Source: Escherichia coli (GTDB lineage: Bacteria > Pseudomonadota > Gammaproteobacteria > Enterobacterales > Enterobacteriaceae). Taken from it: a DNA stretch of 64,000 bases. Below are positions 54,405-64,000 of this stretch, piece after piece. A program made the position numbers and the translations under genes. How positions within the stretch are numbered: position 1 is the stretch's first letter; each line of letters begins with the position of its first letter. The stretch is from the NCBI RefSeq assembly GCF_003334315.1, contig NZ_QOWR01000009.1; one strand, written 5' to 3'. A model generated the notes under the pieces. That model was not told the origin of the DNA and searched no databases. It saw nothing but the letters and a program-made list of their open reading frames with translations.

Positions 54405-57400
54405 ATGAGACACTTTATCTATCAGGACGAAAAATCACATAAATTCTGGGCGGTGGAGCAACAGGGAAACGAGTTGCATATCAGTTGGGGAAAAGTTGGC
54501 ACCAAAGGGCAAAGTCAGATAAAAAGTTTTTCAGATGCTGCGGCAGCGGAAAAAGCGGAACTTAAGCTGATTGCGGAGAAGGTGAAGAAGGGGTATGTGG
54601 AGCAAGCGAAGGATAATTCTTTGCAACCTTCCCAAACGGTAACGGGCTCTCTCAAGGTAGCGGACTTATCCACCATTATTCAGGAACAACCCTCTTTCGT
54701 AGCAGAAACCCGTGCGCCTGACAAAAATACAGATGCTGTTTTACCGTGGCTGGCGAAAGATATTGCTGTCGTTTTTCCGCCCGAAGTTGTACACACCACG
54801 TTAAGTCATCGCCGCTTTCCCGGAGTTCCTGTTCAGCAAGCAGACAAATTGACCCAATTACGTCGCTTAGCCTGTAGTGTGTCGCAACGGGATAATAAAA
54901 CAGCCACATTTGACTTCAGCGCCTGTTCTTTAGAATGGCAAAACACCGTCGCCCAGGCGATCAGTCAGATCGACGGCCTGAAAACAACACAGTTACCATC
55001 ACCAGTAATGGCTGTACTCACGGCACTTGAAATGAAATGCACAAGATATAAAGTGCGTGAGGATGTTATGGATCAGATCGTCCAGGAAGGCGGTCTGGAA
55101 TATGCTACTGATGTAATAATACACCTTCAACAGATTGATATTGAATGGGATTATGCGAATAATGTCATTATTATTCTGCCGTCTGGCATTGCACCTAGCT
55201 ACTTGGAGCAATATTCCAGATTTGAATTACGCCTACGTAAACATTTATCACTGACGGAAGAGTCTCTCTGGCAAAAATGTGCACAAAAACTTATTGCCGC
55301 AATTCCACATATTCCAGAATGGCGGCAACCATTAATTGCTTTGTTATTACCCGAAAAACCAGAAATTGCACATGAAATTGCCCAGCGTCTACTGGGGCAA
55401 AAAAAATTACCCTCGCTTGAGTGGTTAAAAATAGTGGCGACTGATGAGCACATTCTTGCCTCATTAGAAAAATATCACGAACCATATGCCATTTTTGATG
55501 ATTACTATTGTGGTGCGATATGGTCAGCCACCGTATTACAGGAGCAAGGTGTTGCAGCCCTGCCCCGATTTGCTCCCTATGCCGCAAGTGACTACTGCGC
55601 CGATGTGTTGCGTCATATCAATCATCCGTTCGCATTGACACTGCTTATACGTGTAGCCGGGCAAACTAAACGCTGTCACGATCGGATGACGAAAGCCATT
55701 GCTGCGTTCCCACATGCAGCAATGGCGGCACTGACGGAACTTCTTGGGCAAAAAGAAGAGAACAGTTGGCGCATTATGCTAATGACAATGCTTATCTCAC
55801 AACCAGCACTGGCAGAACAGGTCATTCCCTGGCTCTCGACACCCGCAGTTGCCGTACTGAAATCATGCCAGCAACAACTGACACAGCCCTCAAACCATGC
55901 CAGCGCCGATCTACTGCCAGCCGTAGTAGTCTCCCCTCCCTGGCTTTCGAAAAAGAAAAAATCGCCGATTCCGGTGCTGGATTTAGCGCCATTAGGCATT
56001 GAGCCAATCTGTTATCTGACAGAAGAAATCAGTAATCAACTTTTGGCGAAATATATCTGGTATTCAAAACACATCACGGTTAGCCATGAAGAAAGTACTA
56101 CCAACCTGTTGGCAAGGATGGGTTTTCAACGACGGATCGCTGGTACATATATTAAAGCTCCCGAAGCGGTAGTTGAGGCATGGCTAAATGAAGATTATTC
56201 AACCTTACTAAGTGAATTTAAGGTGTTTCATTCACCTACCGGGCATTATTGGCAGTTGGGGATTTTGACAACATTGCCGCTGGAGAAAGCAGTAAAAGCA
56301 TGGAATGCCCTTACCCTATCTCCACATACCGATACCGAATACTCCATGTTACATTTTGGACTCAAAGGGTTACCTGGGTTAGTAAACTCACTTGCACGCT
56401 ATCCACAAGAAGCCTTGCCCATCACGAATTACTTCGCAGCGAGTGAGCTGGCTCCTGCCGTCGCCCGTGCCTTCAACAAACTGAAAACGCTACGCGAAAA
56501 CGCCCGTAGCTGGCTGTTGAAATACCCGGAACATGCCCTTACCGGCCTGCTGCCTGCGGCGCTCGGCAAAGCCGGTGAAGCACAGGATAACGCCCGCGCT
56601 GCCTTGCGTATGCTTACCGAAAACGGTCATCAGCCATTACTGCAAGAAATCGCCCGACGTTATAACCAGCCGGAAGTAACCGATGCGGTGAACGCTCTGC
56701 TTGCGCTCGATCCCTTAGATAATCACCCGACAAAAATCCCCACTCTTCCGGCCTTTTATCAGCCATCGCTCTGGACGCGCCCGGTATTAAAAGCAAATGC
56801 CCAATCACTGCCAGATAGCGCCCTCCTCCACCTCGGTGAAATGCTCCGCTTCCCTCAGGAAGAGGCTCTGTATCCGGGATTATTGCAGGTGAAAGACGTC
56901 TGTTCCGCCGACTCACTGGCGGGATTTGCCTGGGATCTGTTTACCGCCTGGCAGACCGCTGGCGCGCCGTCGAAAGAGAGTTGGGCGTTCACTGCGTTAG
57001 GCGTTCTCGGTAACGATGACACCGCCCGCAAACTGACGCCATTAATACGCGCCTGGCCTGGTGAATCCCAGCATAAACGCGCCACCGTTGGGTTGGATAT
57101 TCTCGCTGCTATCGGTAGTGATATCGCCCTTATGCAGCTTAACGGCATCGCCCAGAAACTGAAATTCAAAGCATTACAGGAGCGGGCAAAAGAAAAAATT
57201 GCCGACATTGCCGAGAGCCGCGAACTCACGGTGGCGGAGCTTGAAGATCGGTTAGCACCGGATCTCGGTCTGGATGATAACGGTTCGCTGCTGCTGGATT
57301 TTGGCCCACGGCAGTTCACCGTCAGCTTTGATGAAACCTTAAAACCGTTTGTGCGTGATGTTTCCGGCAGCCGCCTGAAGGACCTGCCCAAACCGAACAA

Positions 57401-58199
57401 AAGCGATGATGAAACGCGGGCGAACGATGCGGTTAACCGCTACAAATTGCTGAAAAAAGATGCGCGTACCATCGCCGCCCAGCAGGTAGCAAGGCTGGAA
57501 TCCGCCATGTGCCTGCGCCGCCGCTGGTCGCTGGAAAACTTCCAGCTCTTCCTGGTTGAGCATCCGCTGGTTCGTCACTTAACCCGCCGTCTGATTTGGG
57601 GCGTTTATAGCGCCGAAAACCAGCTACTGGCTTGCTTTCGCGTAGCAGAAGATAACAGCTCCAGCACCGCTGACGATGATCTTTTCACCCTGCCGGAAGG
57701 CGATATCTCTATCGGCACTCCTCACGTTCTGGAAATATCACCAACGGATGCTGCCGCCTTTGGTCAGCTTTTTGCCGACTACGAACTGCTACCACCGTTC
57801 CGCCAGCTCGACCGTAACAGCTACGCCCTGACAGAAGCCGAGCGCAATGCCAGTGAACTGACCCGCTGGGCAGGCAGAAAATGCCCGAGTGGTCGGGTCA
57901 TGGGGCTGGCGAATAAAGGCTGGATAAAGGGCGAACCACAGGATGGAGGCTGGATCGGATGGATGATCAAACCTTTGGGTCGCTGGTCGTTAATCATGGA
58001 AATCGATGAAGGCTTTGCGGTAGGCATGTCGCCAGCCGAACTCAGCGCTGAGCAGCTCTTAAGCAAGCTGTGGCTATGGGAAGGCAAAGCAGAAAGATAT
58101 GGCTGGGGGAGTAATTCAACACAGGAAGCGCAGTTCTCCGTAATCGATGCCATCACCGCCAGCGAGCTAATTAACGATATTGAAGCCCTGTTTGAATAA
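54405..58199 (+). CDS. yehH: Large WGR-domain protein with YehI-like C-terminal region (1264 aa), intact here
   Basis: N-terminal WGR domain (FIYQDEKSHKFWAVEQQGNELHISWGKVGTKGQ); long colinear similarity to YehI (FDLRLRKHLSL, AWDLFTAWQ.AGAP, FGPRQFTV.FDE, FADYE..PPFRQL). Confidence 0.85.
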   Translation: MRHFIYQDEKSHKFWAVEQQGNELHISWGKVGTKGQSQIKSFSDAAAAEKAELKLIAEKVKKGYVEQAKDNSLQPSQTVTGSLKVADLSTIIQEQPSFVAETRAPDKNTDAVLPWLAKDIAVVFPPEVVHTTLSHRRFPGVPVQQADKLTQLRRLACSVSQRDNKTATFDFSACSLEWQNTVAQAISQIDGLKTTQLPSPVMAVLTALEMKCTRYKVREDVMDQIVQEGGLEYATDVIIHLQQIDIEWDYANNVIIILPSGIAPSYLEQYSRFELRLRKHLSLTEESLWQKCAQKLIAAIPHIPEWRQPLIALLLPEKPEIAHEIAQRLLGQKKLPSLEWLKIVATDEHILASLEKYHEPYAIFDDYYCGAIWSATVLQEQGVAALPRFAPYAASDYCADVLRHINHPFALTLLIRVAGQTKRCHDRMTKAIAAFPHAAMAALTELLGQKEENSWRIMLMTMLISQPALAEQVIPWLSTPAVAVLKSCQQQLTQPSNHASADLLPAVVVSPPWLSKKKKSPIPVLDLAPLGIEPICYLTEEISNQLLAKYIWYSKHITVSHEESTTNLLARMGFQRRIAGTYIKAPEAVVEAWLNEDYSTLLSEFKVFHSPTGHYWQLGILTTLPLEKAVKAWNALTLSPHTDTEYSMLHFGLKGLPGLVNSLARYPQEALPITNYFAASELAPAVARAFNKLKTLRENARSWLLKYPEHALTGLLPAALGKAGEAQDNARAALRMLTENGHQPLLQEIARRYNQPEVTDAVNALLALDPLDNHPTKIPTLPAFYQPSLWTRPVLKANAQSLPDSALLHLGEMLRFPQEEALYPGLLQVKDVCSADSLAGFAWDLFTAWQTAGAPSKESWAFTALGVLGNDDTARKLTPLIRAWPGESQHKRATVGLDILAAIGSDIALMQLNGIAQKLKFKALQERAKEKIADIAESRELTVAELEDRLAPDLGLDDNGSLLLDFGPRQFTVSFDETLKPFVRDVSGSRLKDLPKPNKSDDETRANDAVNRYKLLKKDARTIAAQQVARLESAMCLRRRWSLENFQLFLVEHPLVRHLTRRLIWGVYSAENQLLACFRVAEDNSSSTADDDLFTLPEGDISIGTPHVLEISPTDAAAFGQLFADYELLPPFRQLDRNSYALTEAERNASELTRWAGRKCPSGRVMGLANKGWIKGEPQDGGWIGWMIKPLGRWSLIMEIDEGFAVGMSPAELSAEQLLSKLWLWEGKAERYGWGSNSTQEAQFSVIDAITASELINDIEALFE

Positions 58200-58208
58200 G
58201 GAAAGAGC

Positions 58209-63613: not shown

Positions 63614-63623
63614 GGAAAGATGC

Positions 63624-64000
63624 ATGAGCGAGCCGTTAATTGTCGGCATCCGGCATCATAGTCCGGCCTGCGCCCGGCTGGTGAAATCGTTAATCGAAAG
63701 CCAGCGGCCACGATACGTGTTGATTGAAGGCCCGGCTGATTTTAATGACCGGGTAGACGAACTGTTTTTAGCCCACCAGCTTCCGGTAGCTATTTACAGT
63801 TATTGCCAGTATCAGGACGGTGCAGCCCCCGGGCGTGGTGCCTGGACGCCATTTGCTGAATTTTCGCCGGAGTGGCAGGCGCTACAAGCCGCACGTCGCA
63901 TTCAGGCACAAACTTACTTCATCGATTTGCCTTGCTGGGCGCAGAGTGAAGAAGAGGACGATTCGCCTGATACGCAAGATGAAAGCCAGGCCTTACTGCT
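63624..64000 (+). CDS. yehM: YehM-like protein, 5' part only (runs off the window end)
   Basis: ATG at 63624 preceded by GAGGAAAG; open frame to the window end (MSEPLIVGIRHHSPACARLV...). Confidence 0.7.
   Translation, partial: MSEPLIVGIRHHSPACARLVKSLIESQRPRYVLIEGPADFNDRVDELFLAHQLPVAIYSYCQYQDGAAPGRGAWTPFAEFSPEWQALQAARRIQAQTYFIDLPCWAQSEEEDDSPDTQDESQALL

Follow-up and report, generated by a model that had tools for sequence, protein, structure and literature searches.

What does a cluster of giant paralogous proteins, a MoxR-class ATPase and their companions do next to metG in Escherichia coli? The genes concerned have long carried y-names in the best-studied of all bacteria, and of the five protein families involved, two remain domains of unknown function. 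We addressed this question for a stretch of 64,000 nucleotides (assembly GCF_003334315.1, contig NZ_QOWR01000009.1; hereafter the window), which carries yehH, yehI, yehK, yehL and the start of yehM in the order and at the positions given in the initial annotation. The ORF coordinates also agree with the sizes of 1264 aa for YehH and 1210 aa for YehI given there.

The yeh locus downstream of metG

The features of the region are as follows.

54274–54297, + strand: terminator-like hairpin 3' of metG (9-bp stem with 6 GC pairs, T-run)
54405–58199, + strand: yehH, 1264 aa; WGR, helical repeat and DUF4132; intact in the window
58209–61841, + strand: yehI, 1210 aa; DUF4132 paralogue without WGR
61902–62219, + strand: yehK, 105-aa ORF
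62339–62414, + strand: gene of an OrzP-type antitoxin sRNA (Rfam RF02083)
62526–63613, + strand: yehL, MoxR-class AAA+ ATPase (AAA_5); frameshifted
63624–64000, + strand: 5' end of yehM (DUF5682), start of a TIKI/TraB/ChaN-like domain; runs off the window

The hairpin at 54274–54297 sets the yehH transcription unit apart from metG; the promoter of this unit lies in the metG–yehH spacer (54265–54404). In K-12, this molR (yehH) promoter has been mapped and is activated by BglJ-RcsB (PMC3950696). yehI starts 9 nt past the yehH stop, and only about 125 codons of yehM fall within the window. The cluster had been described as having no assigned function. This holds, but two regulatory facts have been published, namely the action of BglJ-RcsB at yehH and the de-repression of yehL and yehM in hns/stpA mutants (PMC3686432).

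A five-family module conserved across phyla

The nearest match is E. coli NZ_AP027769, in which the region is 100% identical save for 3 substitutions and 1 indel. It is annotated there as DUF4132, yehI, yehK, yehL and yehM, followed by yehP (vWA) and yehQ (SWIM). Both genes that the initial annotation had proposed to look for beyond the window are hence present downstream in this genome, and the expected vWA partner of the MoxR ATPase is yehP, two genes further on (locus L001). The window thus contains the first half of a five-family module, with yehP and yehQ just past its edge.

The module consists of DUF4132 (one to three retained copies), MoxR (AAA_5), DUF5682, vWA and SWIM proteins. At least 576 species, from Proteobacteria, Actinomycetota and Myxococcota, carry the genes in the same order and on the same strand. 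The distribution is patchy and rare, with the module present in a few hundred out of some 100,000 species. There is no sixth conserved gene, and in 77 loci we found no conserved client gene beside the module. yehK lies outside the conserved module: it is confined to Escherichia, with Jackhmmer matches in E. coli loci only, has no Pfam match and shows a dN/dS of 0.08.

The MoxR ATPase, its vWA partner and the SWIM protein

[quoted passage not shown] Its Walker A, Walker B-like, arginine and C-terminal segments are at least 90% conserved among 83 sequences, including the motifs GEPGTAKS, VRFEEITR and ATANTRDRGVNEMSAALKRRF. YehL is reportedly listed as a separate MoxR subfamily by Snider & Houry 2006. 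YehP matches Pfam VWA_CoxE and has a complete MIDAS motif, with DQSGSM, GGGT and DF.EGG conserved across 82 sequences. In YehQ, likewise encoded outside the window, the SWIM zinc motif C70-x-C72-x5-C78-x-H80 is at least 90% conserved (80 sequences), while Pfam matches SWIM weakly (E 0.0013).

An AAA_5/MoxR gene near a vWA gene with a complete MIDAS is the arrangement also seen in the MoxR–vWA pairs RavA–ViaA, CoxD–CoxE, NorQ–NorD and CbbQ–CbbO and in midasin/Rea1. The yeh module differs from these chaperone pairs by three additional obligatory families (the TIKI-like DUF5682, SWIM and DUF4132) and by having no client operon adjacent to it.

In the window itself, yehL carries a 1-nt deletion at about position 63410 (GTGGCCC to GTGCCC), which splits it into ORFs 62460–63443 and 63419–63613. 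The frame shifts after residue ~295, so that the protein loses a C-terminal segment whose conservation across phyla is 90% or more. Among 5,426 complete E. coli genomes, not one has the exact sequence of this deletion, which is a private mutation or else a sequencing error. Because yehL is frameshifted, the module is probably non-functional in the window strain.

The DUF4132 giants YehH and YehI

As had been noted, YehH begins with a WGR domain (Pfam PF05406, residues 6–69, E 5e-18), and YehH and YehI are paralogues, with 37% identity over about 1184 aa. Pairwise comparison places the difference at the N-terminus, where YehI lacks the first ~109 aa of YehH, WGR included; the Klebsiella orthologue of YehI likewise has no WGR. 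Pfam locates the DUF4132 domain of YehH at residues 988–1173 (E 1e-49). The AlphaFold model (pLDDT 87.4) predicts WGR at 1–66, a disordered stretch at 70–110, a helical region at 120–950 and an alpha/beta region at 960–1200.

Conservation in YehH is concentrated in the WGR domain and in residues 775–1180. More generally, the C-terminal third of DUF4132 proteins is conserved and the helical middle diverges rapidly. The N-terminal 70 residues of YehH resemble the WGR protein 2ra8 of Bacteroides fragilis (E 1e-23) and the WGR domain of PARP3 (E 0.002). Unlike PARP-type WGR proteins, however, YehH has no catalytic PARP domain, and YehI and most actinobacterial DUF4132 proteins have no WGR at all. 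As only 72 of 161 DUF4132 ORFs possess one, the WGR domain is optional and cannot define the mechanism.

In E. coli strains with three paralogues, the yehH of the window corresponds to paralogue B. We considered whether it might be a recombinant of paralogues A and B, which was ruled out as it follows paralogue B over its entire length. A homologue search with YehH returned E. coli sequences only and exposed divergent allele groups.

YehM has a TIKI-like fold

Fold comparison places the N-terminal domain of YehM with the TIKI/TraB/ChaN/erythromycin-esterase fold, an alpha/beta architecture built around a parallel beta-sheet and shared with ChaN, Bcr135, HopBA1 and RRSP. It is followed by a HEAT-like scaffold of ~500 aa. 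His, Glu and Arg are among the invariant residues of this domain. H11, E35 and H202 are invariant, lie in GxxH, E and GGxH motifs with TraB-like spacing and are candidate catalytic residues; active members of the TIKI superfamily are marked by a catalytic 2His/2Glu set, in which Glu accompanies two GxxH motifs, and in YehM the two His and one Glu would be candidates for three of these four positions. The part of yehM that lies in the window encodes a G-x-R-H-H-S-P motif.

At the profile level, Pfam assigns YehM to DUF5682 only and to no TIKI/TraB family. A YehM profile found no match among PDB sequences, and hhalign against a YbaP/TraB alignment gave a probability of 0.2%, the TraB alignment being narrow (Neff ~2). 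In these searches, no superfamily member (Tiki, TraB/PrgY, ChaN, EreA/B/C, Bcr135/136, HopBA1, RRSP, PMT C1/C2) showed a significant profile match to YehM. YehM further differs from them by the fusion of the domain to a HEAT-like scaffold and by its MoxR–vWA operon setting, a context that we did not find in the literature consulted. Judged by its modelled fold, we regard the N-terminal domain as a putative hydrolase.

A putative ATP-driven remodelling machine

The best reading of these data, and one that we consider probable, is that yeh encodes a self-contained cytoplasmic machine that uses ATP for remodelling, with recognition subunits that can be exchanged and a putative hydrolase. By analogy with other MoxR–vWA pairs and midasin, the YehL ring and the YehP MIDAS adaptor would act together: the MIDAS site would grip a partner protein, and ATP hydrolysis would pull on or remodel it. 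YehM may bridge to the adaptor and supply a hydrolytic (peptidase or esterase) activity; natural YehM–YehP fusion proteins do occur. The DUF4132 giants would dock via their conserved C-terminal module, and their variable helical region, together with WGR where present, may recognise different ligands. With such docking and variable recognition, the giants would be exchangeable recognition or client subunits. An invariant five-family module across phyla, a TIKI/TraB-like DUF5682 and exchangeable-looking, diversifying DUF4132 proteins together turn a set of unknowns into a testable machine.

Alternatively, the module could be a housekeeping chaperone or maturation system akin to CoxD/CoxE, NorQ/NorD, CbbQ/CbbO or RavA/ViaA, in which the MoxR–vWA pair activates, or inserts a cofactor into, an enzyme encoded elsewhere and DUF4132, DUF5682 and SWIM serve as adaptors. 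The name MolR ("molybdate metabolism regulator") would then hint at a molybdoenzyme client. The match of YehP to VWA_CoxE fits this idea, as do the housekeeping neighbours, the chromosomal, non-mobile location and the strong purifying selection on the core (dN/dS of yehL 0.02–0.06). Moreover, every experimentally characterised MoxR–vWA pair in the sources consulted (midasin, archaeal phage-tail assembly, RavA–ViaA, CoxD–CoxE) remodels or matures a specific client; part of this list comes from Kaur et al. 2020 (PMC7159879), and the rest is general background. Known maturation pairs, however, adjoin their client operon, whereas no conserved client gene adjoins the 77 yeh loci. Multiple fast-diverging giant paralogues would be unexpected in a single-client chaperone, and neither the patchy, rare distribution nor the frequent loss of function within one species suits a housekeeping role. 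The molybdate annotation is historical, and we found no paper testing such a link for the yeh locus in the literature searched. We therefore consider this explanation improbable. If it were true, it would reveal a new client–adaptor logic for MoxR ATPases.

Variation and decay within E. coli

The statement that yehH is full-length in the window and disrupted in K-12 proved correct. K-12 carries yehF and a yehH pseudogene, which differ from the window by 9 substitutions and a 1-nt insertion and leave pieces of 274, 645 and 333 aa. Such damage is common, and six of the nine E. coli loci examined have at least one frameshift or stop, in different genes:

Window: yehL
K-12: yehH, yehQ
TUM1886: yehL, yehM
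noe1104: yehK, yehP
O157: paralogue A, paralogue B, yehM
O145: yehH

IS and Tn insertions are also found in E. coli yeh loci. These lesions, and the H-NS silencing of part of the locus, would be expected if the E. coli cluster were a decaying relic without current function, its order conserved only through function in other lineages. Yet dN/dS between deeply diverged E. coli alleles is 0.02–0.24, which shows long-term purifying selection. Fully intact loci also exist, for example in strains KL53, 98218 and 2017.03.02CC, and full-length proteins predominate in database clusters (clusters of 759-aa YehM have 14,594 and 4,681 members, truncated ones between a few hundred and some 1,100). We consider a relic very unlikely. 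As K-12 has lesions in yehH and yehQ and its core genes are H-NS-silenced, K-12 genetics has been uninformative for this locus, and experiments will need a strain in which it is intact.

The locus is unusually divergent for the species, with only 90–95% identity between many E. coli strains. DUF4132 copy number, 1 to 3 overall, varies within E. coli too, and one allele is mosaic: its first 2.4 kb show 52–73% nucleotide identity and its last 1.6 kb 95%. The sensor-like DUF4132 genes have the highest dN/dS of the locus (0.17–0.24).

Is the module a defence system?

The initial annotation likened the cluster to an NTP-dependent conflict or defence module. What stands is a single NTP-dependent multi-protein module with some conflict-like traits: the number of giants varies, their sequences diverge rapidly, and the locus is divergent and often inactivated. 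The designation as a defence module is not supported, and the refutation test that the initial annotation itself proposed went against it. An anti-phage or other conflict system would have the DUF4132 giants sense an invader-derived molecule, with WGR and SWIM contacting nucleic acid, the MoxR–vWA pair setting an ATP-dependent threshold, and the TIKI-like hydrolase YehM acting as effector or activating protease. It would be a fifth MoxR–vWA class and extend MoxR–vWA-gated immunity to a new architecture. The variation described above, including the mosaic allele, agrees with this scenario, and frequent independent pseudogenisation and IS/Tn insertions are expected of costly immune genes. The patchy spread across phyla, the H-NS silencing of the yehLMPQ half, the type I toxin–antitoxin (TA) module nested in the locus and the presence of the toxins RRSP and HopBA1 among TIKI-fold proteases point in the same direction.

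Against this, a survey for defence-island association revealed variable, housekeeping neighbours. None of the 40 nearest neighbours in 21 diverse loci is a convincing PADLOC defence gene; this survey is a sample and not a statistical enrichment test. Six Pfam-annotated contexts were likewise housekeeping, without defence genes, and none of the seven yeh proteins matches a PADLOC family at E <= 0.01. The chromosomal position beside metG is fixed in all E. coli, and the module is essentially absent from plasmids and phages (39 of 72,556 plasmid records, one partial phage hit). No nuclease, TIR, pore-former or other toxic effector is recognisable, dN/dS is well below 1, and WGR is optional. In the literature searched, we found no report of phage protection by the module.

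The most pertinent comparison is with the MoxR–vWA conflict systems of Kaur et al. 2020, which comprise the types VMAP, iSTAND, FtsH and beta-propeller (PMC7159879). Like yeh, these ternary systems join a conserved MoxR–vWA pair to one more conserved component and to large proteins that vary and diversify; components of the peptidase type recur in them, and they occur in Actinomycetota and Myxococcota. However, the yeh module is not listed there, and that paper mentions neither SWIM, WGR, DUF4132 nor Yeh. In place of VMAP, iSTAND, FtsH or beta-propeller as third component, yeh has DUF5682, SWIM and DUF4132 as its third to fifth, a separation made by the terms used in the paper. The effector-associated domains and variable effectors of those systems are not seen in yeh, which, unlike them, is common in unicellular Proteobacteria too.

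On balance, a conflict function is possible, though we think it unlikely. Its most specific form, a new fifth class of MoxR–vWA-gated surveillance or immunity, is somewhat more doubtful still. Here, DUF4132 sensors, some with a WGR reader of nucleic-acid ends, would recruit a target, and the MoxR ring would license the YehM TIKI protease to cleave a host or invader protein. If so, the system would amount to a bacterial equivalent of RRSP and similar effector proteases, used for self-defence.

Two sets of database matches were set aside. The PADLOC matches "RTasDnaG-like" and "MzaA" among neighbours of loci L032 and L038 are generic primase and sigma-70 domain matches, as judged also by Pfam on the syntenic gene in L007. 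All seven proteins also have PHROG matches; a phage origin was rejected, as the matched families are small and nearly identical and contain split pseudogene forms. We take them for stretches of the E. coli chromosome included in a mis-delimited prophage record, consistent with the near-absence of the module from phages.

An orphan Orz sRNA between yehK and yehL

The initial annotation overlooked the yehL frameshift and also a small RNA gene in the AT-rich yehK–yehL spacer. The sRNA at 62339–62414 matches RF02083 over its full length (1–76), scoring 99.9 bits where the gathering threshold is 60, and scans place a promoter-like site at 62297–62325 and a terminator hairpin at 62389–62409. No Zor toxin ORF is present in this spacer of the window. 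By sequence, the sRNA is an orphan OrzP antitoxin, the remnant of a type I TA system. We view it as a separate element nested in the yeh spacer and not as a part of the machine. Orz-only loci and the expression of OrzPmg in MG1655 have already been published (PMC11264685), and the sRNA of the window is a full-length OrzO-P member whose position matches that in K-12.

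The yeh cluster in the window

The initial annotation placed yehH, yehI and yehK, followed by yehL and the start of yehM, at 54405-64000. Open reading frames (ORFs) were found in this order and at these positions:

54405-58199, + strand: yehH, 1264 aa
58209-61841, + strand: yehI, 1210 aa
61902-62219, + strand: yehK, 105 aa
62526-63613, + strand: yehL, frameshifted in the window
after yehL: 5' part of yehM, of which the ~125 first codons lie inside the window

YehH indeed carries the proposed N-terminal WGR domain (Pfam WGR, residues 6-69), as well as a DUF4132 domain (Pfam, residues 988-1173). 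The supposed paralogy of the two giants also holds: YehH and YehI are 37% identical over ~1184 residues, with YehI lacking the N-terminal ~109 residues of YehH, WGR among them. The gene for a MoxR-type ATPase, yehL, is present as described, while its frameshift at ~63410 had been missed.

The 10-kb stretch is identical to E. coli NZ_AP027769 bar three substitutions and one indel. In the annotation of that genome, metG lies upstream, and a DUF4132 protein gene, yehI, yehK, yehL and yehM are followed by yehP, yehQ, yehR, yehS and btsRS. A vWA gene (yehP) and yehQ, which encodes a SWIM protein, had been suggested as genes to look for past the window edge, and both are present downstream. The statement that yehH is disrupted in K-12 is confirmed, as K-12 carries yehF and a yehH pseudogene. 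K-12 yehH departs from the window gene by just nine substitutions and one nucleotide inserted at window position 57250, and is broken into pieces of 274, 645 and 333 aa. A premature stop at codon 615 also interrupts K-12 yehQ. Just upstream of the cluster (48000-51000), GC content falls to 0.35-0.42; in the NZ_AP027769 annotation, the yehABCD fimbrial operon and the yehE region lie there.

A five-family module across bacteria

Relatives of YehM (DUF5682) form 2,252 clusters at 50% identity and are encoded in at least 576 species (scan with one genome per species), which among the matches listed include Gamma- and Betaproteobacteria, Myxococcota and many Actinomycetota. Iterated profiles built from the E. 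coli proteins were run on ORFs that we called in 90 loci, 80 of them from the species scan. In nearly all complete loci, the same five families lie on one strand in an invariant order: one to three DUF4132 genes, YehL, YehM, YehP and YehQ. The order recurs on Pfam-annotated contigs of Serratia, Variovorax and Klebsiella, in a Rhodanobacteraceae MAG and on two further contigs of metagenomic or MAG origin. When we clustered the flanking ORFs in search of a sixth conserved gene, none was found beyond genus-level synteny (best 7/77 loci). The yeh cluster can thus be delimited as a self-contained, five-family module.

YehK was restricted to Escherichia among the loci searched with profiles, and has no Pfam match. 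In the Variovorax locus, a 145-aa ORF (8387-8824) occupies the position of yehK between the DUF4132 and MoxR genes; its sequence is unrelated to YehK and it likewise has no match in Pfam.

In NZ_AP027769, 10 nt separate yehL from yehM, and the next two gene pairs overlap, yehM-yehP by 8 nt and yehP-yehQ by 4 nt. This spacing would fit translational coupling. No membrane segment or signal-like N-terminus was predicted in the module proteins. The yeh genes, their annotations and the MoxR-vWA logic are already known; a five-family module delimited across phyla was not found described in the literature we searched.

YehL and its frameshift in the window

YehL is a MoxR/AAA_5 ATPase; among solved structures, midasin AAA domains (E 7e-10) and the MoxR protein 2r44 are closest to it. 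Its motifs are those of a competent ATPase and at least 90% conserved among 83 sequences: Walker A (GEPGTAKS), a Walker B-like motif (VRFEEITR) and an arginine-rich ATANTRDRGVNEMSAALKRRF segment. In the window, one G is absent at ~63410 (GTGGCCC to GTGCCC), and the frameshift replaces the last ~68 residues. Since conservation of the lost segment is 90% or more all the way from Proteobacteria to Actinomycetota, the YehL ATPase of the window is very probably inactive, and the machine of this strain should thereby be disabled. A search of 5,426 complete E. coli genomes found this exact sequence in none of them. The deletion is thus either an inactivating mutation private to this strain or an error introduced when the source genome was sequenced.

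YehP, YehQ and YehM

YehP matches VWA_CoxE and has a complete MIDAS motif (DQSGSM, GGGT, DF.EGG). YehQ retains a single SWIM signature (C70-x-C72-x5-C78-x-H80), the rest of the protein being weakly conserved.

The AlphaFold model of YehM (pLDDT 91.2, pTM 0.88) comprises an alpha/beta domain (1-240) and a helical scaffold (255-753) resembling the HEAT-type scaffolds of Symplekin, TAF6 and Vps35. Across 45 diverse aligned sequences, G-x-R10-H11, E35, H51, S81-P-E83, D101, R175-E176-x-x-M179 and G199-G200-x-H202 are invariant. YbaP, a TraB-family protein of E. coli, has corresponding motifs (G38-x-x-H41, E67, R228-N229-x-x-W232, G249-x-x-H252) in the same order and at similar spacing: from H to E, 24 residues in YehM and 26 in YbaP; from R to H, 27 and 24. 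Sequence-profile methods detected no relationship between YehM and TIKI/TraB, and a whole-chain Foldseek search was uninformative. By its predicted structure, YehM has a TIKI-like fold in which several polar residues are invariant, and is a putative hydrolase; no residue could be assigned as the second catalytic Glu. Not all TIKI-fold proteins are hydrolases, ChaN and PMT being counterexamples. We found no TIKI-like assignment for DUF5682 in the literature searched.

In two divergent DUF5682 representatives, a complete vWA domain of the YehP type, 53-54% identical to YehP, is fused to the C-terminus. These fusions suggest that YehM and YehP work as a single unit.

The giant DUF4132 proteins

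The YehH model (pLDDT 87.4) contains the WGR domain (1-66), a disordered linker (70-110), helical repeats (~120-950) and a mixed alpha/beta region (~960-1200) that includes DUF4132. Outside WGR, no solved relative of the giants was found by sequence. Across the family, WGR and residues 775-1180 are the best-conserved parts, whereas the middle varies. Co-resident paralogs were compared in pairs drawn from many genera; in 43/43 pairs, conservation is higher in the C-terminal 450 residues than elsewhere (median 54% vs 31.5%), marking a conserved C-terminal module. The best match of a paralog lies in another genome in 68 cases versus 6, which indicates from sequence comparison that the paralog lineages are old and retained. 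WGR is present in 72 of 161 DUF4132 ORFs and absent from most actinobacterial arrays. This anatomy was not found in the literature searched.

Is the module a defence system?

The cluster had been proposed to be a conflict or defence module, with a survey of neighbourhoods named beforehand as the test that could refute it. This survey returned housekeeping neighbours without defence genes. None of the seven proteins matches PADLOC, and among the nearest flanking ORFs in a sample of 21 diverse loci, 0/40 were convincing defence genes. Strong PADLOC matches to a DnaG-like primase and sigma-70 factors were rejected as generic-domain matches, leaving one weak caspase-domain match among the 40 ORFs. 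Six Pfam-annotated contexts contain transporters, RecJ, cytochrome bc1, PriA, sigma factors and GGDEF proteins. DUF5682 occurs in 39 of 72,556 plasmid records, mostly megaplasmids, chromids and chromosome-sized records, and a single partial match was found among 50,697 phage records. SWIM, WGR, DUF4132 and Yeh all go unmentioned in a published catalogue of conflict systems built on MoxR-vWA (PMC7159879).

A defence or conflict role is thus unlikely, but we retain it as the main rival, since the neighbour survey was a sample and several conflict-like traits remain: DUF4132 copy number is variable, recognition-like subunits diverge fast, divergence within species is high, loss is frequent, phyletic spread is patchy, and the locus is silenced by H-NS.

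In Comamonas composti, the module apparently lies between DnaG-like primase and RpoD-like sigma genes (2311-4329 and 15823-18369), i.e. in the usual dnaG-rpoD neighbourhood, and in two Xanthomonadales loci (L007 and L038) a sigma-70-type gene is directly downstream; these genes are named only from generic-domain PADLOC matches and, in L007, Pfam.

Several small PHROGs families (phrog_20839, 36602, 36295, 30700, 33984, 31592 and 29006) are near-identical to E. coli Yeh proteins and include split pseudogene forms (YehM as 509 + 243 aa). They probably represent chromosomal DNA in a mis-delimited prophage record, and could mislead annotation towards a phage origin.

A proposed mechanism

By analogy with MoxR-vWA pairs and midasin, the MIDAS site of YehP would grip a partner, which the YehL ring may remodel or release at the expense of ATP. 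The HEAT-like scaffold of YehM could bridge the adaptor, with YehM adding a putative hydrolytic step. The DUF4132 giants would dock via their conserved C-terminal module, so that their variable helical surface, and WGR in some, might face different ligands, foreign or cellular. A set of long-standing unknown genes now has a clear, testable hypothesis.

Variation and regulation within E. coli

The locus adjoins metG in 5,426/5,426 complete E. coli genomes and is polymorphic. Some strains have three DUF4132 genes, the window yehH corresponding to the second. The additional paralog (A, ~1265 aa) lies between metG and the yehH-type gene:

L008 (strain TUM1886), 8684-12481: paralog A
L009 (strain noe1104), 8684-12484: paralog A

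Paralog A is ~52% identical to the window yehH at the DNA level and is absent from the window strain and K-12. Between the window yehH and that of noe1104, DNA identity is 52-73% over the first 2.4 kb and ~95% over the last 1.6 kb. Over the locus, identity to the window is no higher than 90-95% in most E. coli genomes. Comparing window 52222-64000 with L008, L009 and L010, dS is 0.1-0.2 from metG through yehQ and falls to 0.03-0.08 in yehR, which suggests that the metG-yeh segment comprises old allelic lineages or imported DNA. Every gene of the locus is under purifying selection, weakest on the giants.

Table. dN/dS of genes at the locus
metG: 0.01-0.02
yehL: 0.02-0.06
yehP: 0.05-0.09
yehQ and yehM: about 0.1-0.15
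yehI: about 0.2
yehH-type paralogs: 0.22-0.24

Inactivating lesions are present in six of nine E. coli loci examined, in differing genes each; three are fully intact. Strains KL53, 98218 and 2017.03.02CC are examples with an intact locus. The locus also takes insertions, of IS elements and of the resistance transposon TnMB1860, the latter in ST131. This pattern of divergence and decay was not found in the literature searched. According to published work, BglJ-RcsB is an activator of the yehH (molR) promoter (PMC3950696), and hns/stpA mutants show de-repression of yehL/yehM (PMC3686432).

An OrzP-type sRNA gene between yehK and yehL

The AT-rich, 306-bp yehK-yehL spacer contains a full-length OrzO-P antitoxin sRNA gene, which the initial annotation had missed:

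62297-62325: promoter-like site
62339-62414, + strand: orphan OrzP-type antitoxin sRNA gene (Rfam RF02083, 99.9 bits vs threshold 60)
62389-62409: terminator hairpin

No Zor toxin ORF was found in this spacer. Orz-only loci and expression of OrzPmg in MG1655 have already been published (PMC11264685). At the same site, O157:H7 has two complete zor-orz modules, and the compared loci L008, L009 and L096 have one each.
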